From: a bacterium
GTDB lineage: Bacteria; Desulfobacterota; Binatia; Binatales; Binataceae
Direction: 5' to 3'
Assembly: GCA_014896235.1 (NCBI GenBank)
Contig: JADBKU010000030.1
Location: 32,939-96,938, forward strand
DNA: 64,000 bases
The notes under the pieces were generated by a model. It ran no database searches. It was given only the letters and a program-made list of their open reading frames with translations, and was not told where the DNA came from. Every line of letters starts with the position of its first letter. Position 1 is the first letter of the stretch. Shown piece after piece: positions 37,006 through 46,894 of this stretch. A program made the position numbers and the translations under genes.

Positions 37006-37659
37006 TTATGCGCCCGGCTCGGCCACGTAAGCGCCGATCGGAAGGACCACCGCGCCTTCGCGAATCGGCACGCATTCGGGCGGAAATTCCTGCACGACCT
37101 CGATTTGCGCGGCGTCGAGCCGATCGAGGAATCGCTCCAGATGGCGTATCGCTCCGGTCGGCAGATCGTGCAATACGACCAGCGACCACGGGCGCGTCGC
37201 GATTTCCTTAAGCGCCCGATCGACCCAGCCGTCGGGGTCGTCCCAATCGTGCGGCACGCAGTTCCAGAGCACGCAGGTGTAGCGTCCAGCGGTCAGGTAA
37301 TCCACCGCGTCGCGGCTGAGCAGGCAGCGGTCCAGACGGCCGCCCCCGCCGAACGGACGGAACAGCCGCTCGGGGCGGCTCAGCGGGCCAAGCGCTTCCT
37401 GCGCGCGCCCGATTTCGATCGCCGCCGCGCCACGTTCCCGCCGTTCGCCGAGAGGCACGCTATGGGTCAGGCTGTGGTTGCCGATCCAATGGCCGGCGTC
37501 GTGCGCCGCTTCGGCGAGCCGGCGCCGGCTGGAATCGGCGAGCTTCTCTCCAATCACGAAGAAGGTCGTCAGCAACCGCCGTTCGCTCATGATCTCCAAC
37601 ACGCGCGGCGTGACTTCAGGCTCTGGGCCATTATCGAAGCTGAGCGTAACCTTGCTCAT
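37006..37659 (-). CDS. Polysaccharide deacetylase (CE4/NodB) family protein
   Basis: LSFDNGP, GNHSLTH, FRPFGG and VLHD. Confidence 0.88.
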   Translation of the reverse strand: MSKVTLSFDNGPEPEVTPRVLEIMSERRLLTTFFVIGEKLADSSRRRLAEAAHDAGHWIGNHSLTHSVPLGERRERGAAAIEIGRAQEALGPLSRPERLFRPFGGGGRLDRCLLSRDAVDYLTAGRYTCVLWNCVPHDWDDPDGWVDRALKEIATRPWSLVVLHDLPTGAIRHLERFLDRLDAAQIEVVQEFPPECVPIREGAVVLPIGAYVAEPGA

Positions 37660-37718: not shown

Positions 37719-37838
37719 TCACTTCTTCTGTTCCATCGGCGCGCTACAGCATTTGATTGTGCCGGCCCCGCCTTTGGTGACGATTACCTGCGAGCCGCAT
37801 TTGCCACAGATATAGACTTTCCCCAGTTGATTCGCCAT
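37719..37838 (-). CDS. Desulforedoxin-like microprotein B, 39 aa (not in ORF track)
   Basis: MANQLGKVYICGKCGSQVIVTKGGAGTIKCCSAPMEQKK; C-x2-C-x15-CC; GGGAG RBS; paralogue at 42763-42906. Confidence 0.85.
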   Translation of the reverse strand: MANQLGKVYICGKCGSQVIVTKGGAGTIKCCSAPMEQKK

Positions 37839-37872: not shown

Positions 37873-38661
37873 CTATGCTCCCTTGAACAGCGGTTTGCGC
37901 TTGTTCAGAAAGGCCGCCACGCCTTCGGCGCGATCGGCCGTCGTTTGTAGCAAGGCGTACAAGTCCTCTTCAAGCCTGATACCCTGCTCGATCGTCATAT
38001 CGGCGCCCTTGCGCACGGCCTCTTTCGCCATCCGCATCCCGAGCGGTCCGCGGCTGTGCAGCACGCCGAACAGCTCGTCCGCGACGCGCTTCAGCTCCCG
38101 CCGGTCGCGCGCCAGATAGGTCGCCAGCCCCAGCCGCATCGCCTCGGCGCCGTCCAGCGCCGCTCCGCCCAGCAGCATCCGGAAGGCGTGCGCGGCGCCG
38201 ATCAGGCGCGGCAGCCGCTGCGTGCCGCCGAAGCGCGGCAGCGCCCCGCGCTCGAGCTGGGTCATCGTGAACCGCGCGCTCTTGACGGTCGCGCGGAGAT
38301 CGAGCGCCAGCGCCAGCTCCAGCGCCTCGTCGCCAATATCGCCGTTGACCAGCGCGACGGTTGGCTTGCCGATCCGCGCCAGCGTTTCCACCAGATCCGT
38401 ATCGACGTCGGGGTCGAAACCGGGCGCGAAAACCTCGCCGGCGCCGGTTACAGCAAGCGCCGCTATCTCGTCGTCGTCCTCGACCGTTTCCGCCAAATCG
38501 ATCAGCTCGCGCGCCATCGCACGGCTCACCCGGTTCGCGGCGGCGGGCCGCGCCAACGTCGCGACCATCACGCCGTCGGCGAGCGCGAGTTCGATAGCGC
38601 CCGGTCCGCTATCCAAGGCTTGGCGCGCGATTGCGCGGGGCTTTCGCCGGGGAGTCGCCAT
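37873..38661 (-). CDS. Crotonase-fold protein with degenerate active-site motifs
   Basis: GGTQRLPRLIG and TADRAEGVAAFLNKRKP.FKG are intact, but the usual motifs read VFAPGFD and GDIGDEALELALALD. Confidence 0.8.
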   Translation of the reverse strand: MATPRRKPRAIARQALDSGPGAIELALADGVMVATLARPAAANRVSRAMARELIDLAETVEDDDEIAALAVTGAGEVFAPGFDPDVDTDLVETLARIGKPTVALVNGDIGDEALELALALDLRATVKSARFTMTQLERGALPRFGGTQRLPRLIGAAHAFRMLLGGAALDGAEAMRLGLATYLARDRRELKRVADELFGVLHSRGPLGMRMAKEAVRKGADMTIEQGIRLEEDLYALLQTTADRAEGVAAFLNKRKPLFKGA

Positions 38662-38687
38662 CGTCGCGATCAAGCGCCGCGGCCGGT

Positions 38688-40238
38688 TCAGGCGCCGGCT
38701 TTCTGATTTGCATGCAACTCTTTGCGCAGGATCTTACCGAGCGCGTTTTTCGGCAACTCCGCGATAAATTCGATATTCTCCGGCCGCTTGAAGCTCGCCA
38801 GCCGCGTCCGGCAGAACTCCTGTATCTCCTTCGCGTCCGCCTTCCGTCCCTCGCGCAGAACGACGAAGGCTTTGATCGTTTGCCCCCATTCCACCGAGGG
38901 TTCGCCGATTACCGCGGCTTCTTCGATCGCCGGATGGCTCATCAGGACGGTTTCAATCTCCGCGGGCGCGATATTTTCGCCGCCGCGGATAATCATGTCG
39001 TCCTTGCGGCCGGCGAAGAAGATGTAGCCCTCCTCGTCGAGCCAGCCCAGGTCGCCGGTCGCGCGCCATCCGTCGGCGAGCGCGGCGTCGTCCTTGCGTC
39101 CCGCATAGCCTTTCATGATGCGGGGCGTGCGGATAATGATTTCGCCGACTTGTCCGGCTGCGAGGAATTTGCCGTCTTCGTCGCGCACCCGCACTTCAAC
39201 GTCAGGCAGCGGTTTGCCGATCGAATTGAGCCGCTTGAGCTTGAGTTCGATCTGTTCGGGCGTGCCTTCGATCCGATGGTCGTCGGGGCCGAGCACGGTC
39301 AGCGACGACGTGGTTTCAGTCTGTCCGTAGGCGTTGACGAAGCCGACATTTTTCGGGAACGCCTCGATCGCCCGGCGGATTACCGCCACCGGCATCGGCG
39401 CGCCGCCATAGGCGAGGTTGGTGAGCGACGAGAAATCGGTTTTGGAGAAGGCCGGATGGTCAAGCAACTGCTTCATCATCGTGGGCACGACAAAGGCGTG
39501 CGTGACCTTTTCGCGCTGCACCAATTCGAGCCAACTGGCCGGCTCGAACTGCGGCATCACGACCATCTTCCGGCCGGTCCAGAGGTTGGTCATCATCGCG
39601 GTCGTGCCAGCAATGTGGTAGAACGGCGCGCACACCAGAAACACCCCCCGCTCGGTTCCATCCGCCATCTCGACGTTCGCCGTCACGTAAGCCGTAAAAT
39701 CGTGGAAACTCAGCATCACGCCCTTGGGCAGCGAAGTCGTGCCGCTGGTGTACATCAGGACGGAAACGTCTTCTTCCTCGATTTCGGCCTCGGCTTCGTC
39801 GGGATCGGTTTTCGCGGCGAGATCGGTCAGCCGGGCAAGCGCGCCGTCGCCCTCGCCGAGCGCAATGCATTTGACGCCATTTAGCTTGGGATGAATCCGC
39901 TTTACGAGGTCGAGATAGCGATCGCCGACCAGCAACAGCCGCGCGTTCGCGGTGTTGATCATGTATTCGAGCTCGGGGTCCTTGGCGCGATAGTTGAGCG
40001 GCAAGAAGGTCAGGCCGGCCTTGGCGGCGGCGTAATAGCTGGCGATATAGAGGTGCGAATTGGTGTCGAGGATGGCCAGAACGTCGCGTGGCTTGAGGCC
40101 CTGTTGTCTGAAGACGCCGGCCAGCCGGGCGACCAAATCGTTTAGTTCGCCATAGGTGAGCCGGGTTTGTCCAAAGACCACGATTTCCTGCTCGGGCGCA
40201 ATCGAGCCGGGGATCGAAATGAAGTTGACGGTGTTCAC
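38688..40238 (-). CDS. ANL-superfamily adenylate-forming enzyme (long-chain acyl-CoA ligase-like)
   Basis: YTSGTTSLPKGV, PFYHIAG, YGQTET, TGDLG, GRKDDMIIRGGENI and LPKNALGK. Confidence 0.93.
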   Translation of the reverse strand: MNTVNFISIPGSIAPEQEIVVFGQTRLTYGELNDLVARLAGVFRQQGLKPRDVLAILDTNSHLYIASYYAAAKAGLTFLPLNYRAKDPELEYMINTANARLLLVGDRYLDLVKRIHPKLNGVKCIALGEGDGALARLTDLAAKTDPDEAEAEIEEEDVSVLMYTSGTTSLPKGVMLSFHDFTAYVTANVEMADGTERGVFLVCAPFYHIAGTTAMMTNLWTGRKMVVMPQFEPASWLELVQREKVTHAFVVPTMMKQLLDHPAFSKTDFSSLTNLAYGGAPMPVAVIRRAIEAFPKNVGFVNAYGQTETTSSLTVLGPDDHRIEGTPEQIELKLKRLNSIGKPLPDVEVRVRDEDGKFLAAGQVGEIIIRTPRIMKGYAGRKDDAALADGWRATGDLGWLDEEGYIFFAGRKDDMIIRGGENIAPAEIETVLMSHPAIEEAAVIGEPSVEWGQTIKAFVVLREGRKADAKEIQEFCRTRLASFKRPENIEFIAELPKNALGKILRKELHANQKAGA

Positions 40239-40245
40239 GGACTAA

Positions 40246-41058
40246 TTACCTCCTGCGCGGCGATGGCCGCGTGGCCGCCGCCTTGCCCAACGGCGCCTTC
40301 ACAAAATTGTCGAGCCGGGCGGCCAGCCGCCGTTCAAGATCGAGGCCTTGCGCCAAACTGGCGTCGAGGCCCTCCCAAACCGCAAATTTGGCGCAAGCGA
40401 CCCGCTCGCGCGGCATCCGGCTCAGCGCCTTGGCCATCCCAAATGCGGCGCGGTCGAGCTCCCGCCGCGGCACGACATCGGCGACCAAACCTATAAATAA
40501 AGCCCGATCCGCGTCAATCCATCGGCCGGTCAAATTCAAATCGAGCGCCCATCCGAAGGGCAGCCGGCGCGCCGCGGTCTGCGTCCCGGCGACGCCCGGA
40601 ATCATCCCAAGGCCGGTTTCGGGCAGGCAAAAGCGGGCGTCGTCGGCCGCGATCGCGATATCGCACAGCAGCGCCATCTCCAGTCCGCCGCCTACCGTAA
40701 AGCCGTGGACCGCCGCGACGGTCGGCACGGCCAGGCCGCGCAAACGGCCCCAAACGTCGCGCCGGAAACGAATCCAGCGCGCCGCGATCGGCGAGGGCGC
40801 GCTGCCGAATTCGCTAACGTCGCCGCCGGTCGAAAAAGCGGGTCCGGCGCCACGCAGCACCATCGCGCGGATTTCAGGATCGCGATGGACCGCGGTCAGC
40901 GCTGCGTACAGCGCGTCGCGCATCGCGACGTTATAGGCGTTCAGCCGCTCCGGCCGATTCAGGGTGATCCATGCGATCGCGCCGCGTTTCTCGAAAAGTA
41001 CGGGCGGCGAAGACGGACGCGAAGCCTTTCGCGCCGCCGTGACAGCGGTTCTGGTCAT
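40246..41058 (-). CDS. Enoyl-CoA hydratase/isomerase family protein
   Basis: LNRPERLNA, FSTGGDV, GGGLEMALLCD and LPETGLGMIPG. Confidence 0.9.
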   Translation of the reverse strand: MTRTAVTAARKASRPSSPPVLFEKRGAIAWITLNRPERLNAYNVAMRDALYAALTAVHRDPEIRAMVLRGAGPAFSTGGDVSEFGSAPSPIAARWIRFRRDVWGRLRGLAVPTVAAVHGFTVGGGLEMALLCDIAIAADDARFCLPETGLGMIPGVAGTQTAARRLPFGWALDLNLTGRWIDADRALFIGLVADVVPRRELDRAAFGMAKALSRMPRERVACAKFAVWEGLDASLAQGLDLERRLAARLDNFVKAPLGKAAATRPSPRRR

Positions 41059-41106: not shown

Positions 41107-42663
41107 TTATGGAGAATACAAGTTGGCCGTGTCGCTTTGCGCGATCGCCGGCCGGCCGCGTTCGTAAACCACTTTGCCGCCGATGATCGTTAGCTCGATC
41201 GGCAGGTTCGCGAGTTCGGCCGGCGCCGCCGCCAACGGATCGGCGCCCAGAACGATCAGGTCGGCGAGGTATCCGGGCTCGATTGCGCCGGCCGCAAGAC
41301 GGCTCAGCCGCGCCGCTCGGCTGGTGAAAAGCTCAAAGGCTGTGGCGACCGGCAGCGCTTCCGCGGGCGCCAGCTCTTCGCCCTCCGCGCCGCGCCGCGT
41401 CACCGCGGCGGCGATCGCCGTCAGCGGCCGTGGCGGCGTGACCGGAGCGTCCGTGCCGGCGGCAAGTTCGACGCCCGCGTCGAGCAGGCTGCGGGCGCGA
41501 TAGCGATAGGCCGTCAAACCGGGATCGGCGGCGTATTTCGCGGCGCGGTAATGGAGAAATCCGGGGTTCGTCACCACCCACACGCCCATGCGTGCGATGG
41601 CTTCCGGATAGTCGGGGGGAATTACTCCGCCATGCTCGACCCGGCATACCGTGCCCGCCGCCAGCCGCGGATTCATCTCTTTGCGAACCCGATGGATGGC
41701 GGTCAGGGCCGCGTTGATTTCATCCAGTTCGGTGGCGTGGAAGGCGGCGTCCAGACCGAGACTCAACGCCCGTCCGAGGTCGCGCGCCAGCCGTTCCGGC
41801 CGCGCGCGCGCGACGTCCATGAATTTGACTCCGGCCAGCCTGAGACCGGACGCATCGGCGATCCGGCGCGCTTCGCTCGCGGCGTCGATAAAATTTTCGC
41901 CAAGCATCACGCCGGCGCGCTGGCGAATCACGCCCGCGCTCGCCATGCGCGCAAGCGCCGCAATCTGGTTGGGACCATTGCGCACGGTGGCGTCGGTGAA
42001 CGCCGTGATTCCGCCGGCGGCGAGCTCCCGGCTGAAGTTGCGCGCGCGCGATTCCAGTTCCGCCGCCGTCACCAGCGGCAAACGATCCGACAGCCACTGT
42101 TCCAGTCCGGCCACGAAGCCGGTTAGCCGGCCGTCCGAATCGCGGTCGAGCCATGCGCCGTCCGGCGGATGAAAATCCGGCGATTCCAGTCCTAGGGCGG
42201 CTATGGCGCGCGAATTCAACCACGACGCATGGAGCGTCTGATGGCGCAGGCGAACCGGGTTGCGCGGCGCGGTTTGATCGAGTTCGGCGCGGGTCGGGCC
42301 GCGCCGCTCGGCGATCAAGGCCTCGTCGCAGCCGAATGCGCGCAGCCAATTGCCCGGCGGAGTGCGGCCCGCCGCCAGCCGCAGCGCGGCGAAAAGATCG
42401 CCGAGCGTACGGCATCGCTGAACGTTCGCGCCGGTGGTGGCGGCGGCGCCTTCCATGAAATGGAGATGGCAATCGACGAAGCCGGGCGCGACCGTCCGGC
42501 CGTTTAGGCGAATCAGATGGGTGCTGGGACCGACAAGCGATTTCAGCTCGTTAAAGCCGCCGTAAGCCATGATTCGGCCCGCGCCAACGGCCACCGAATC
42601 GCACTCGGGGTGACCAAAGACGCGGCCGTTATGCAGCACCAGATCGGCTTTATTCTGTGCCAT
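41107..42663 (-). CDS. Amidohydrolase (YtcJ/Amidohydro_3-like)
   Basis: PGFVDCHLH, FHATE, RVEHG, GTDAPV and GAIEPGYLADLIVL. Confidence 0.88.
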   Translation of the reverse strand: MAQNKADLVLHNGRVFGHPECDSVAVGAGRIMAYGGFNELKSLVGPSTHLIRLNGRTVAPGFVDCHLHFMEGAAATTGANVQRCRTLGDLFAALRLAAGRTPPGNWLRAFGCDEALIAERRGPTRAELDQTAPRNPVRLRHQTLHASWLNSRAIAALGLESPDFHPPDGAWLDRDSDGRLTGFVAGLEQWLSDRLPLVTAAELESRARNFSRELAAGGITAFTDATVRNGPNQIAALARMASAGVIRQRAGVMLGENFIDAASEARRIADASGLRLAGVKFMDVARARPERLARDLGRALSLGLDAAFHATELDEINAALTAIHRVRKEMNPRLAAGTVCRVEHGGVIPPDYPEAIARMGVWVVTNPGFLHYRAAKYAADPGLTAYRYRARSLLDAGVELAAGTDAPVTPPRPLTAIAAAVTRRGAEGEELAPAEALPVATAFELFTSRAARLSRLAAGAIEPGYLADLIVLGADPLAAAPAELANLPIELTIIGGKVVYERGRPAIAQSDTANLYSP

Positions 42664-42762
42664 CGGCGCACCCGTCCCCCTTTCTTGAATCGCGCGCGCC
42701 CTGCGCAAAATGTCGTAAGGGCGGCCGACGACGCACAATGGCGCGAGGCCGCCCCGACCGCG

Positions 42763-42906
42763 TCAGTCGGACGACGGAAGCGGCTTGGCCTCTTTCAATT
42801 TCATTTCGCCCTCGCAGCACTCGAGAGCGCCCGAACCGGCCTTGTTGCACAGCACTTCGGTGCCGCATTTCTCGCACATGTAACGCTTGCCGAGCACGTT
42901 AGCCAT
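42763..42906 (-). CDS. Desulforedoxin-like microprotein A, 47 aa, with C-terminal EAKPLPSSD tail (not in ORF track)
   Basis: MANVLGKRYMCEKCGTEVLCNKAGSGALECCEGEMKLKEAKPLPSSD; strong GGAGGA RBS; first gene of the cluster. Confidence 0.88.
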   Translation of the reverse strand: MANVLGKRYMCEKCGTEVLCNKAGSGALECCEGEMKLKEAKPLPSSD

Positions 42907-43005
42907 CGTTGTTTCCTCCATGCGGCGGGTTCAATCGTCCGGCCGCCAAACAAAATCAGACACGCCGAGTATCATTTCGGCCCTGCGGATAAAAGTCTTG
43001 AGACG

Positions 43006-44019
43006 TTATTGGAACGGCAACTCGCTCACGACGCCCGAAAACTCGCCATTGACGGCGTGAACCGCGACCATCGCGCCGGGGATCCAGGCCTGCTGATGAA
43101 TAATCGCAAGGCCGATAGCGCCGAAGCGCGGCGAACGGACAATCGAGGTCAGACGGCCGACCTCCTTTTCCTGATAAATAACGGCGGCGCCGGGCGCGGG
43201 CGTGCGTTCTCCGGCAATCCTAAGCCCAAACAGTTTTTTTCTGATCCCGCCGCGCGCCGTCGCCCGCTCGATCGTTTCCTGCCCGACGTAGCATCCTTTG
43301 TTGAACGAAATCGCGCCTTCGAGCCGCGCTTCAAGCGCGATCGTTTTTTCGTTCGTATCGATTCCGACGCGCGCGCGGCCGTTCTCGACGCGGATGAGTT
43401 CGAGCGTCTCGGGCGTCACGCGAGCCGCCTCCGGCCGGTCTTTGGCGTCGAGGATTCTCGCCAATAGATCGTCAATTATCGTGCGTGAGGCGATTATCGA
43501 ATAGGCTTGCGTACCGTTGCGCGGCAGATTCGCGATAGTCATCCCGTCCGCCGCCATGTGCCGCCATTCCGTCAGGTCCGCAACGCCGCTGTCCGCGATC
43601 GCCGCCGCGGCTCGTGCGGAGAGCGGTCCTTCGAGGTCGAGCACTGCCATCTCGCCGAGCGTCTCGAACTCGACGTCGTCGGCGACCAGCAGGCGTTCCA
43701 GATGATCTCGGGCGGCCGGCCACAGCCGGCGATCGATTTCGATCAGCAGCGCATCAGGCGCGGCGTACAGGAAAAGATCGGCGATCAAATGGGCGCGTTC
43801 GTTGAGAATCAGCGCCGGGGCGACCGATCCCGCCGCGAGGCTTTTTACGTCCTGCGAGCACATCCCGTGCATGAACGCGACCCGATCGCTTCCGATCACG
43901 CGAATCAACAGCCGATCGGCAAGCGGTACGATTCCCGCGCCGTTGCGCAGAGCAAAATACTCGGCGTCGATCTGAGACTCCGGGAGTGCGTTCAAGGCGC
44001 CTTGCTCCAGCGAACTCAC
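43006..44019 (-). CDS. ygfZ: YgfZ/GcvT folate-binding protein
   Basis: GSDRVAFMHG and ISFNKGCYVGQE signature. Confidence 0.9.
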   Translation of the reverse strand: MSSLEQGALNALPESQIDAEYFALRNGAGIVPLADRLLIRVIGSDRVAFMHGMCSQDVKSLAAGSVAPALILNERAHLIADLFLYAAPDALLIEIDRRLWPAARDHLERLLVADDVEFETLGEMAVLDLEGPLSARAAAAIADSGVADLTEWRHMAADGMTIANLPRNGTQAYSIIASRTIIDDLLARILDAKDRPEAARVTPETLELIRVENGRARVGIDTNEKTIALEARLEGAISFNKGCYVGQETIERATARGGIRKKLFGLRIAGERTPAPGAAVIYQEKEVGRLTSIVRSPRFGAIGLAIIHQQAWIPGAMVAVHAVNGEFSGVVSELPFQ

Positions 44020-44228
44020 GTGAGGGAATTTCCGGCTTGCGAGAATAATGGCTGCGTCTAAAAAAATAACAGATTCGGCGCGTTCGCCACAACTCCGCCC
44101 GCGGCGATCGCGCGGCCTGGATTAGCCGCCGAGACGTTGGAGCCTGCGCGCTTCCGATTCGCTAGGGAGGGTCTTATAACGATCGTAAAAATTTGACGTA
44201 TAATCATCTGGTCAGGAAGATTTTGGGG

Positions 44229-46247
44229 ATGCGACCAGGACCGGCATCGCGCGGGCGGAATATTTCCGCGCACGCAAGGCGGCGAGCCGCCCCGCGCCGC
44301 TTGCGGGCCGCGTGGGTCGCCGCGATTCTGCTTGCCGCCGTATGCGCTTATGCCGTGACGCCCGCCCGGCAGGCCGCTGCGATTAGCGATCAGGCGTTCG
44401 CGATGCTTGCCGGTTTGAATGCGGCGAGCGGCGGCGCGTCGAATCCCGCGGTCGGGCCGATGGCGATATTTGCCGGAGACGCGCAGGCGCTCAGTCATGC
44501 GTTGGCGACCGGCGACGGGTCGTCGGCCGCGTCCGCGATGGCGTCGCTGGAGGCCGATGAGAAATCCGTCGATGCCGCCGCCGGGCGCCATCCGCACGGC
44601 TTCGACACGAATCAATGGAATGCGATCAAGCGGCAAATGACCGCGCTGGAAGCCGCCGTTCCATCAGCCGCCGCCGCGCCACGCGGCGCGCCTGCGCCCA
44701 TTACGCCGCCGCCGATCGCGCCTGCGAGCGCCGGCGCCGCGGAAAAGCCGATGACCGATTCCGCGTCCGGATTGGCGCCGCACGGCGCGCCGCAAGTCGT
44801 GATCGAATCGCGCAGTCTCGACGGCGATACGGTGCGCATCAAAGGCTACATGGAAGGCTCCGATCTGACGAGCGCGGGGCTGTTCGAGAACGGCCGCGAG
44901 GTGCGCGCCTTTCATATCGGCAAAGTCGCGGGCGAGGAACGCGTCAACTTCGATCTCGGGCTGGGCAATCCTTCTTCAACGACCACGATCAGAGTTTTCG
45001 ATTCGGCAGGCCGGATGGGCGAAGCGTCCGTACTTGAGCCTGGCTCGGGCGGCGCGGCGCCCCCGGCTGCGGCGTCAGCGGCCGCGGTCGCGCGAGAGGC
45101 GTCGAATGAGCCGGAAATTCCCGCGATGCGCCCGCCGAACGCGCCGACCGAAGAAGCCGGCGTCGAGGTCGATCGCAATTCTCCGAATTCCGCGGCGGGC
45201 AATCTGGCGGTGATTCCCTCGCATGGCGCGCCGCGGCCGTCGCCATCGAAGCGCCATACGATGGCGAGCCGGCTGGCGGATTTCCATATCGACGTTATCG
45301 CTGTGAATCAGGTCCAAACGCAGCCGCCCATCTATGAAATCATCGGGCAGATTGAAGGGCGGGGCGTGAACCGCGCGGGAATTTATATCAATGGCCGCCT
45401 CGTCCATCGGATCCCGGTTGCCAGCGGCGCGCCGTTGAACAGCTTCGATCAGCGCTTCACGCTCGAAGGCGGCGCCCCGACGATCCGCGCCTATGCGATG
45501 GGCGACCGATTTATCGAAACGCCGGTCGATCTGGGCAATTCGCTCGCGTCGGCCGAACCGATGCCGCCAGCCGCCGCCGCGCCGATGACCGGCGGAGCCA
45601 TGCTCGGCGGAGCGCCCGTCATGGCCGCAGGCATCGCCATTCAAATCGCCGCCGTCGGCTCAATCTCGCCGACGCAGTCGGTCGTGTCCGGCGTGATTTC
45701 CGGCAAGCACATCGTCAGCGCCGGGCTTTATCAGAATGGGATGCTGGTGCAGGCGATTCCGGTCCGCCACGGAATCGGCGCGATGATCGGTTCGCTCCTG
45801 CCCGGCTCGTCGAACAACGTGAATTTCAACGTCCGGTTCGATCCGCAAGCCGGACCGGCGACGATCCGCGCCTACTCCGGCAAGGGCATCTACGCCGAAC
45901 AGCCGGTCGTCGCGGGCGCCACGAATAATCCCTACGCCGGCGGAACGACGACTTACGGCGGTTCGTATTCCTACAGCGCGCCGCCCGTCGTAATGATGCC
46001 GTACAGCGGCTACGGCATGTCGCCCTATGGAATGAGTCCCTACGGCTACGGGACATCGCCGTACGGAATGAGCCCTTATGGGTACGGTATGTCGCCGTAT
46101 GGAACGTATGCGCCGGCGATGCCGCCGAACGGCGTGTATGCGAATCCCGGCGCGGCCAGTCCGTATGCGGGCGGAACTTTCGGCGCGCCGCCCATCAATC
46201 CTTACGCCCCGCCGACCAATCCGTTCAGCGGCCCGCCCGTCCGCTAA
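44229..46247 (+). CDS. Large exported protein with three internal beta-rich repeats and a Tyr/Gly/Met/Ser/Pro tail (start uncertain)
   Basis: Hydrophobic signal AAWVAAILLAAVCAYA and a repeated AG(L/I)(F/Y)xNG...TIR(V/A)(F/Y) unit. Confidence 0.75.
   Translation: MRPGPASRGRNISAHARRRAAPRRLRAAWVAAILLAAVCAYAVTPARQAAAISDQAFAMLAGLNAASGGASNPAVGPMAIFAGDAQALSHALATGDGSSAASAMASLEADEKSVDAAAGRHPHGFDTNQWNAIKRQMTALEAAVPSAAAAPRGAPAPITPPPIAPASAGAAEKPMTDSASGLAPHGAPQVVIESRSLDGDTVRIKGYMEGSDLTSAGLFENGREVRAFHIGKVAGEERVNFDLGLGNPSSTTTIRVFDSAGRMGEASVLEPGSGGAAPPAAASAAAVAREASNEPEIPAMRPPNAPTEEAGVEVDRNSPNSAAGNLAVIPSHGAPRPSPSKRHTMASRLADFHIDVIAVNQVQTQPPIYEIIGQIEGRGVNRAGIYINGRLVHRIPVASGAPLNSFDQRFTLEGGAPTIRAYAMGDRFIETPVDLGNSLASAEPMPPAAAAPMTGGAMLGGAPVMAAGIAIQIAAVGSISPTQSVVSGVISGKHIVSAGLYQNGMLVQAIPVRHGIGAMIGSLLPGSSNNVNFNVRFDPQAGPATIRAYSGKGIYAEQPVVAGATNNPYAGGTTTYGGSYSYSAPPVVMMPYSGYGMSPYGMSPYGYGTSPYGMSPYGYGMSPYGTYAPAMPPNGVYANPGAASPYAGGTFGAPPINPYAPPTNPFSGPPVR
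46011..46110 (+). repeat. Coding tandem repeat of YG(M/T)SP with YG spacers
   Basis: YGMSPYGMSPYGYGTSPYGMSPYGYGMSPYG; the codons are synonymously diverged. Confidence 0.85.
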
Positions 46248-46330: not shown

Positions 46331-46894
46331 ATGTTGATTCAGGCGACGCAGCTACGGCCCGGAATGGTGCTCGAATACAATGGCGGCCTCTGGCGCGTGA
46401 TGACCATCCAGCACATCACCCCCGGCAACTGGCGCGGGATGGTGCAGACCAAGCTGCGCAATATCCAGACCGGATCGCAGACTGAAAACCGCTTCCGCTC
46501 CGAAGATCGCGTCGAGCGGGTCATCCTCGACCAGGTTGAAATGGAATTCCTCTATCAGGAGGGCAACGATTTCCATTTCATGAACACCGAGACATACGAT
46601 CAGATCACGCTGCCCAAGGATTTGATCGAGGACGTCGCCGGATACCTGACGCCGAACCTGAAGGTTGAAGTCGAGTTTCACAACAGCACGCCGCTCAATG
46701 TGACGCCGCCGAAGACCGTTACGATGCGCGTGGTCGAGACCGACCCCGGCATCAAGACCGCGGCGGTCACCAACACGCTCAAGCCGGCCAAGCTCGAAAC
46801 CGGGTTGGTCGTGCAGGTGCCGCATTTCGTGGCCGAGGGCGACCTGATTACGATCAACACCGAGAACAACGAGTATCTTTCGCGTTCGAAGTGA
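46331..46894 (+). CDS. efp: Elongation factor P
   Basis: HITPGNWRGMVQTKLRN, FMNTETYDQ and KPAKLETGLVVQVP. Confidence 0.95.
   Translation: MLIQATQLRPGMVLEYNGGLWRVMTIQHITPGNWRGMVQTKLRNIQTGSQTENRFRSEDRVERVILDQVEMEFLYQEGNDFHFMNTETYDQITLPKDLIEDVAGYLTPNLKVEVEFHNSTPLNVTPPKTVTMRVVETDPGIKTAAVTNTLKPAKLETGLVVQVPHFVAEGDLITINTENNEYLSRSK

Follow-up and report, generated by a model that had tools for sequence, protein, structure and literature searches.

We analysed a 64,000-nucleotide stretch of a Binataceae genome (contig JADBKU010000030.1, positions 32,939 to 96,938; hereafter the window), which encodes on its minus strand a small cysteine-rich protein with a conserved C-terminal tail (gene A), a tail-less paralogue (gene B) and, between them, an acyl-CoA-ligase-type enzyme of the ANL family. 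A and B are well supported as the split accessory module of one ANL-ligase group. The features on which the argument turns are the following.

42763..42906, minus strand: gene A, 47-residue mini-protein with the pattern CxxC...CC, Cys20 and a C-terminal tail (from the open reading frame, its translation and its homologues)
42915..42919, minus strand: ribosome-binding site GGAGG, 8 nt upstream of the ATG at 42906, read from the sequence
42766..42786, minus strand: tail codons 41-47 of A (K-P-L-P-S-S-D), conserved in the orthologues and in the family logo
42766-42795, minus strand: wider conserved stretch K38-D47 of A, from ortholog conservation
37719..37838, minus strand: gene B, 39-residue tail-less paralogue ending in MEQKK, with valine at position 20; stop codon at 37719-37721
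38688..40238, minus strand: AMP-binding (ANL) acyl-CoA-ligase-type enzyme (PF00501, 295.9 bits, with PF13193; NF004837, 482.8 bits for a cut-off of 476)

The ATG of A at 42906 is internal to the minus-strand open reading frame 42763-42921, and the protein translated from it has cysteines at positions 11, 14, 20, 30 and 31 and terminates in KPLPSSD, followed by a TGA stop codon at 42763-42765. B is the sole paralogue of A in the window (tblastn match 37722-37838, minus strand; 48.7% identity, E-value 8e-12) and has cysteines at positions 11, 14, 30 and 31. No third copy was found in the genome itself (3.5 Mb, 64 contigs), which gave two real matches and one at an E-value of about 1. Since the 39 residues of B align without gaps to residues 1-39 of A, A is exactly eight residues longer, as the original prediction had it; the KPLPSSD terminus and the fifth cysteine that the same prediction ascribed to A alone are also present in the translation, B having a valine in place of Cys20. 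The 45 distinct orthologues of B all have 39 residues and end in EQKK (42), DQKK (2) or GQKK (1).

A is covered by metatranscriptome contigs of three studies that share 95-99% identity with the window; these contigs give neither strand nor level, and DNA carry-over may account for them. One RNA-library contig piece corresponds exactly to 42773-42905 with zero differences, and another, 42379-43066, extends from the 5' end of an amidohydrolase gene through A into the 3' end of a YgfZ-like gene. A promoter and terminator scan of 42500-44300 gave nothing on the minus strand around A.

Conservation of the C-terminal tail

The tail is under strong selection. Of 141 near homologues of A, 120 were listed, and 118 of these 120 end in [KV]-[PA]-LP-[SA]-SD, the two exceptions looking like frame errors beyond the start of the tail. 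Across 42 orthologues of A, K38, E39, K41, L43, P44, S46 and D47 are invariant. The 77 Binataceae orthologues differ in codons 38-47 by 359 synonymous versus 7 non-synonymous changes, and in codons 1-37 by 907 synonymous versus 367 non-synonymous changes. All six serine codons are used at Ser45, and the stop codon keeps its place while its identity varies. The synonymous excess, the free choice of codon at Ser45 and the fixed place of a changing stop codon argue that the constraint acts on the peptide and not on the DNA or RNA. By these comparisons the tail is also well supported as the most constrained element of the A/B module. The original prediction had taken the tail to be an invariant reactive arm and had named variation in its sequence or length as evidence to the contrary; no variation of either kind was found among the homologues.

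The same peptide recurs far beyond Binataceae. A profile of A, searched against 1.84 billion representative proteins, gave 1054 matches at an E-value of 1e-3 or below and 177 at 1e-10, and the counts that follow are from the best 150 matches. The C-terminal residue is Asp in 117 of the 150, and the strict motif [KR]-x-[LIVM]-P-[SAGT]-[SAT]-D is present in 95. The logo of the 117 Asp-ended representatives, which the original prediction had proposed to build from a pattern search, reads [KR]-x-[LI]-P-small-small-D and reveals the tailed family that it anticipated: the two residues before the Asp are small in 117/117 (Ser in 98 and 94, otherwise Ala, Gly or Thr), Pro is at -3 in 104/117, Leu, Ile, Met or Val at -4 in 110/117, and Lys or Arg at -6 in 109/117. 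Many of the remaining 33 representatives have the tail plus an apparent read-through or are B-like, and a few subgroups end in ...AAF, ...SE or ...VG.

The logo divides the chemistry that had been suggested for the tail. The invariant tail ending in Asp holds for the terminal Asp itself. A fixed site of Ser O-acylation is disfavoured, since Ser alternates with Ala, Gly and Thr and no single serine is invariant, and the Asp carboxylate is left as the candidate; at least one Ser or Thr is kept at the two positions before the Asp in 117/117. Judging from its replacements, Cys20 probably serves in the core and not in catalysis: its position holds Cys in 77 of the 117 representatives, Val in 20 and Ala in 6. 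A catalytic role for Cys20 was rejected, because Val, Ala or Ser stands there in 28/117 relatives and Val in B.

Desulforedoxin-like fold, and split and fused forms

A and B are mini-proteins of the desulforedoxin fold. The Cys pattern of desulforedoxin, CxxC...CC, is complete in both. B matches PF06397 (desulfoferrodoxin N-terminal/desulforedoxin) with 33.1 bits for a cut-off of 23, and A reaches 21.7 bits (E-value 1.6e-4), just below that cut-off, many of its orthologues carrying a precomputed PF06397 label. The NCBIfam matches of the mini-proteins are to desulfoferrodoxin, all of them sub-threshold. Desulfoferrodoxin and desulforedoxin were the only solved structures matched by the profile of A orthologues in a PDB sequence search, and the profile of the Cys-poor two-repeat relatives gave 0 matches there. 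The AlphaFold2 model of one two-repeat relative, P0121, built from a 38-row alignment, has a mean predicted local distance difference test score (pLDDT) of 83.2, and one of its repeats superimposes on 1dxg_A with a root-mean-square deviation of 0.5 Å over 35 residues (target template-modelling score 0.94, probability 0.94); the Foldseek E-value of this match, 1.5, is non-significant, the domain being very small. The model of A alone has a pLDDT of 84. The tail is modelled at a pLDDT of 85 (last ten residues) in P0121 versus 59 (last seven) in A alone.

The fold is known, and what is new is its tailed, paired or fused, ligase-linked form. A search of the ESM Atlas gave clusters labelled 'hypothetical protein' or Desulfoferrod_N and no others, the Cys-poor tailed forms were assigned to no family by Pfam or NCBIfam, and no description of the tailed family was found in the Pfam and NCBIfam scans or in the full-text literature of the collection searched, which holds articles without their supplementary files.

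Four architectures carry the tail among the best 150 matches: single-domain proteins of 45-47 residues; Cys-rich two-repeat proteins of 81-119 residues, in which a B-like half precedes an A-like half with the tail; Cys-poor two-repeat proteins of about 100 residues; and proteins whose tailed repeat follows an unrelated, helical domain of about 65 residues at the N-terminus. The A-type repeat is recognised by G-K-R-[YF] before the first ligand position (GKRY in A). In the 38-row two-repeat alignment the only invariant columns are the G and R of this G-K-R motif in repeat 2 and the terminal Asp, the K being nearly invariant. The Cys-poor forms keep the tail with 0 of the four ligand cysteines left in the A-type repeat. 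In the two-repeat forms a tail-less B-type repeat is fused at the N-terminus of the tailed repeat, and in the window, as in Dehalococcoidia, it is encoded nearby.

Sequence comparison of the halves supports well that A and B are the split form of one two-repeat protein. In 28 two-repeat representatives, A matched best with the C-terminal half in 20 and B with the N-terminal half in 19, both together in 12, the closest ones included. A Desulfobacteraceae contig (L167) encodes a crotonase, then a ligase (48% identity to that of the window, 501 bits) and then a fused B-A protein, and in Dehalococcoidia a B-like match lies upstream of an adjoining A-like gene in most of the best 80 loci. The original prediction of a split, Cys-retaining form of a two-repeat family agrees with these half-matches and with L167. 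By analogy with desulforedoxin, A and B probably form a heterodimer resembling its homodimer. Pattern-limited scans of species genomes yielded at least 526, at least 592 and at least 275 confirmed loci, and the group extends over Binatota, Actinomycetota, Myxococcota, Alphaproteobacteria, Desulfobacterota and Chloroflexota.

Several relatives depart from these arrangements. P0156 (80 residues) has an A-like domain in which the tail is replaced by a stretch like the linker and the start of the desulfoferrodoxin superoxide-reductase domain, and is either a real bridge or a chimeric assembly. P0131 (122 residues) has the reversed order, with the A-type repeat first and the B-type last, an apparent N-terminal signal or membrane segment, and an internal tail-like stretch. 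Two proteins from the candidate phyla radiation (CPR; Paceibacterota, Nealsonbacteria), encoded at L166 7974-8306 (+) and L169 18-155 (+), carry a tailed A-type repeat behind the helical N-terminal domain of about 65 residues, and their genes sit among housekeeping genes, namely those of DNA polymerase III tau/gamma, Obg and a LapA-domain protein.

Linkage to an ANL ligase and the surrounding operon

In the window the ligase is located between A and B. Its linkage to the small proteins was assessed in the best 80 of at least 592 confirmed loci that encode the Cys-poor fused form, from Acidimicrobiia, Frankia, Actinomadura, Myxococcota and Caulobacteraceae. In 62 of these 80 loci the window ligase has a homologue on the same strand and no more than 400 bp from the small gene, 59 times downstream and 3 times upstream; the homologue is elsewhere in the locus in 5 and was not found in 13. 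The median for the adjoining ligases is 320 bits at 38% identity; some further ANL genes of these loci score only 104-186 bits at 26-34%. Additionally, 19 records of a plasmid collection matched (Rhodococcus 12, Streptomyces 3, Sphingobium 2, Sphingomonas 1, Mycobacterium 1), where the matching gene is annotated as 'hypothetical protein' in 15 and has no annotation in 4. In the annotated plasmid loci inspected, which cover all five genera, an ANL gene adjoins the small gene in 6/6, on the same strand and in either order, with gaps of 2-60 bp; further neighbours are CaiB/BaiF CoA-transferases, crotonases, short-chain dehydrogenases/reductases, acyl-CoA dehydrogenases and a thiolase with an OB-fold protein. 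Proteins of two repeats and about 100 residues that end in KPLP[SA]SD and are encoded beside acyl-CoA ligases of Actinobacteria and sphingomonads, as the original prediction had put forward, do therefore exist, as the profile search and these genomic and plasmid neighbourhoods show.

The tail and the ligase also occur together when unlinked. Five complete Dehalococcoidia genomes each have exactly one close homologue of the ligase (43-46% identity, about 470 bits), apart from the small genes. Of 151 sampled Dehalococcoidia genomes, 104 have both tail and ligase, 23 the tail without the ligase, 2 the ligase without the tail and 22 neither (odds ratio 49.7, Fisher p 5e-12); several of the tail-less genomes have many other ANL candidates. 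The two are co-duplicated in G019, a 5.6 Mb genome of the sampled class with 14 mini-protein and 7 ligase matches, five of them paired within about 210 bp. Such pairs, for example C63:18375-20271, C89:10899-12640 and C221:12095-13991, amount to a paralogous expansion of the whole module. Around the Dehalococcoidia B-A pairs (L174-L253), neighbours are mostly on the opposite strand and include a luciferase-like monooxygenase (37/61), Thioredoxin_9 (31/61) and a Zn-dependent alcohol dehydrogenase (30/61); a 152-residue open reading frame of no assigned family lies just upstream of the pair on the same strand in 30/61 loci.

The other genes of the window's cluster are listed below; with A, B and the ligase they give the minus-strand order YgfZ-like gene, A, amidohydrolase, ECH_a, ligase, ECH_b, B, deacetylase.

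43006..44019, minus strand: GcvT-fold, YgfZ/CAF17-like folate-binding protein, 99 nt upstream of A (PF01571, PF08669; TIGR03317, 76.3 bits for a cut-off of 49)
41107..42663, minus strand: Amidohydro_3 amidohydrolase, 99 nt downstream of A (PF07969, 228 bits); likely start ATG 42663 after AAGGGGGA
40246..41058, minus strand: ECH_a, enoyl-CoA hydratase/crotonase (PF00378, 161 bits)
37873..38673, minus strand: ECH_b, second crotonase, directly upstream of B (PF00378, 119 bits)
37006..37659, minus strand: NodB-type polysaccharide deacetylase-family protein, downstream of B (PF01522, 57.8 bits); homologue in only 4 of the best 80 Binataceae-type loci

Conservation of this order was followed in the best 80 of at least 526 confirmed loci, from species genomes mostly labelled Binataceae or Binatus. 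Where the contig leaves room, the YgfZ-like gene adjoins A upstream in 79/79 loci and the amidohydrolase adjoins it downstream in 77/78; the ligase and B come after A in 45 of the 49 loci where 8 kb or more is available. In five Binataceae genomes B is elsewhere, with the ligase and ECH_b or, at the start of the short contig L258, with ECH_b alone. The cluster therefore consists of two modules, YgfZ-A-amidohydrolase and ligase-ECH-B. Among the fused-form loci, homologues of the other operon genes are a crotonase in 33/80, an amidohydrolase in 9/80 and the YgfZ-like gene in 0/80. Pfam and NCBIfam scans of the operon proteins found no ATP-grasp or E1-like partner, and the Pfam results for the operon included no family of the radical-SAM, YcaO, protease or transporter kind.

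Some details of the neighbouring proteins are worth recording. The YgfZ-like protein, whose model TIGR03317 is one of Fe-S cluster assembly, contains K-G-C-Y-V-G-Q-E, the YgfZ signature; its gene, constant beside A in Binataceae, is absent from all 80 fused-form loci, and an iron-handling link to a Cys4 mini-protein is conceivable. A segment of the ligase at 39204-39248 (minus strand), E-L-K-L-K-R-L-N-S-I-G-K-P-L-P-D-V-E, resembles in tblastn the end of A, E-M-K-L-K-E-A-K-P-L-P-S-S-D, possibly by chance or by mimicry; the alignment of ligases conserves G-[KR]-P-L-P, presumably core motif A6 of the ANL enzymes.

Possible roles of the tail

The explanation that we favour is tentative, plausible rather than probable when taken as a whole: an A/B heterodimer would be a non-catalytic accessory subunit of the ANL-ligase group, and the tail its docking arm. 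The tailed A and the tail-less B would pair so as to mimic the fused pseudo-dimer of other phyla, and the heterodimer would serve one ANL group as a dedicated subunit, in the window for the ligase 38688-40238. The arm, [KR]-x-[LI]-P with two small residues and a terminal Asp bearing two free carboxylates, would be a slender, acid-tipped peptide that docks non-covalently, acting together with the invariant Lys-Arg that opens the A-type repeat. It may enter a pocket or channel of the partner enzyme and there enable or tune catalysis, roughly as MbtH-like proteins do on the adenylation domains of nonribosomal peptide synthetases. The comparisons above establish the fold, the relation of split to fused forms, the strong selection on the tail and the ligase's linkage, co-occurrence and co-duplication with the small proteins, and from these the heterodimer, its binding to the ligase and the docking of the tail are inferred. 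MbtH-like proteins are proteins of about 70-100 residues that partner these domains; they too are small, lie beside ANL adenylating enzymes with which they are co-inherited, and have no catalytic residues of their own. The likeness is one of function only, since MbtH-like proteins have neither a metal site nor a conserved C-terminal arm and share no sequence or fold relation with A and B; A, B and ten relatives gave no match to MbtH (PF03621) in Pfam at E-values up to 0.1.

Several observations weigh against a docking arm for the ligase. Two genes stand between A and the ligase in the window, and in five Binataceae genomes A is found beside the YgfZ-like gene and the amidohydrolase, and B is apart with a crotonase and the ligase; the tightest neighbours of A are therefore not the ligase. 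No ligase homologue was found within 7 kb in 79 of the best 80 Dehalococcoidia loci, and the co-occurrence in that class is uncorrected for phylogeny and genome size. In two CPR genomes of 0.7 and 0.5 Mb, which may be incomplete, a tailed relative occurs with zero PF00501 matches; the tail is therefore not ligase-specific throughout the superfamily. Moreover, the higher pLDDT of the tail in the two-repeat model would be explained no less well by packing on the other repeat than by a free arm. A predicted complex of A, B and the ligase, with the ligase as the scored partner, reached 0.06 and 0.12 for a mark of 0.32, in runs without controls, and speaks neither for nor against binding.

The interest of this family lies in the enzymes concerned. 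Few enzymes of catabolism and natural-product work are as numerous or as heavily engineered as the ANL acyl-CoA ligases. They are treated as stand-alone, and yet a tiny, mostly unannotated protein accompanies one group of them, with a tail under stricter selection than its metal site. If this protein is an obligate subunit, neither the annotation of these ligases nor their expression in a foreign host is complete unless it is included. The cultured hosts Rhodococcus, Sphingomonas and Streptomyces make the question directly testable.

Alternatively, the tail could be a self-contained strap or lid that folds over the partner repeat, the metal or a ligand, its carboxylates pairing with conserved Lys/Arg so as to stabilise the dimer or pseudo-dimer with no outside partner. 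We regard this as unlikely, although a serious possibility. The tail pLDDT of 85 in the two-repeat model versus 59 in A alone would fit such packing, B is strongly basic (6 Lys and 1 Glu, counted from the translation) where the tail is acidic-tipped, and the tail is kept both where a genome lacks any ANL enzyme and where a locus has no ligase linked to it. On the other hand, the CPR-type relatives are tailed despite having no B-type repeat. Conservation of seven consecutive residues across phyla would also be unusually strict for a strap, considering that the body varies widely, including the loss of all four A-type cysteines.

The tail could instead be a covalent reactive arm, as in LysW or ThiS: an ANL enzyme would adenylate the carboxylate of the terminal Asp, and the substrate would be carried as an amide or ester and freed, in Binataceae, by the amidohydrolase. 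This is rather unlikely, and the version in which the substrate is processed while tethered to the C-terminus of the metal-binding mini-protein, before the amidohydrolase releases it, is rather doubtful too. The terminal Asp is the one invariant residue of the tail, always behind two small residues (117/117), following the logic of known carrier proteins with their slender Gly-Gly or acidic termini; the partner conserved with it is an adenylating enzyme; and an amidohydrolase follows A in 77/78 Binataceae loci and is found in 9/80 fused-form loci, on a Sphingobium plasmid and at the locus L202. Like LysW and ArgW, A is a small zinc-ribbon-type protein with an acidic conserved C-terminal arm, and a hydrolase that could release a product adjoins it. 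LysW, however, ends in EDWGE, is loaded by an ATP-grasp ligase and is encoded with lysine or arginine biosynthesis genes, whereas A ends in KPLPSSD and the operon scans found none of these. A also shares with ThiS, MoaD and ubiquitin-like carriers a slender tail of small residues with a free carboxylate and an adenylating partner; ThiS and MoaD have a beta-grasp fold, a Gly-Gly terminus and an E1-like partner (ThiF/MoeB), unlike A with its desulforedoxin-like domain, Ser-Ser-Asp end and ANL partner. The ligase itself argues against modification of a protein, because it resembles an ordinary acyl-CoA ligase, scoring above the NF004837 cut-off, and G501 and K502 of its C-terminal ...LGK... stretch, presumably the A10 lysine motif, are invariant in a 60-sequence alignment. 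Neighbours in other phyla are CoA-dependent enzymes, the operon scans contain no ATP-grasp or E1-like enzyme, and the tail occurs without an ANL enzyme in the two CPR genomes. We know of no ANL enzyme that adenylates a protein C-terminus, which also counts against this chemistry. A covalent arm would nevertheless be new chemistry, a protein-tethered metabolism in at least five phyla and the first ANL enzyme acting on a protein carboxylate.

The resemblance to desulforedoxin raises a further reading, in which the A.B pair is an electron carrier of the desulforedoxin/rubredoxin type, with an Fe(Cys)4 site, and the tail docks onto an oxidoreductase; we consider it improbable. Desulforedoxin is a homodimer, an arrangement that the B.A pair and the fused two-repeat proteins would copy, and A shares with that of Desulfovibrio gigas (1DXG/1CFW) and with the desulfoferrodoxin N-domain (PF06397, TIGR00319) the CxxC...CC pattern, a length of about 36 residues and hidden Markov model matches, its own match being below the Pfam cut-off. 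The desulforedoxin Cys pattern is complete in A and B, ferredoxins, P450 or acyl-CoA dehydrogenases occur in some related clusters, and a luciferase-like monooxygenase, a thioredoxin-like gene and the Zn-dependent alcohol dehydrogenase lie near the Dehalococcoidia pairs. But these Dehalococcoidia neighbours are mostly on the opposite strand, and the conserved neighbour is the ligase, not an oxidoreductase. Unlike desulforedoxin, A has Lys-Arg before its first cysteine, the extra Cys20 and a conserved tail of 10 residues, and its host is a presumably aerobic member of Binataceae with an acyl-CoA operon instead of the redox and superoxide-reductase genes of a sulfate reducer. Hundreds of tailed relatives have lost the metal ligands: the A-type repeat of the Actinomycetota and Myxococcota forms has 0/4 Cys and keeps both the tail and the linkage to the ligase.

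That the tail is a signal for processing, degradation or modification as a ribosomally synthesized and post-translationally modified peptide (RiPP), with no role in the mature protein, is very improbable: a small Cys-rich protein with a conserved C-terminus would suit it, but the Pfam scans of the operon genes gave no radical-SAM, YcaO, protease or transporter family, the same tail occurs on proteins of 45-119 residues and several architectures, and the folded domain is as conserved as that of a structural protein; the RiPP and degron readings were rejected, as no neighbour matches them.

Two plus-strand open reading frames lie beyond the YgfZ-like gene. The first, 44193-46247 (+), would encode 684 residues with an Ala/Pro-rich middle and C-terminal short repeats of the Y-G-M-S-P-Y-G type, and is possibly noise from GC-rich sequence. 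The second, 46331-46894 (+; 187 residues), resembles translation elongation factor P by eye.

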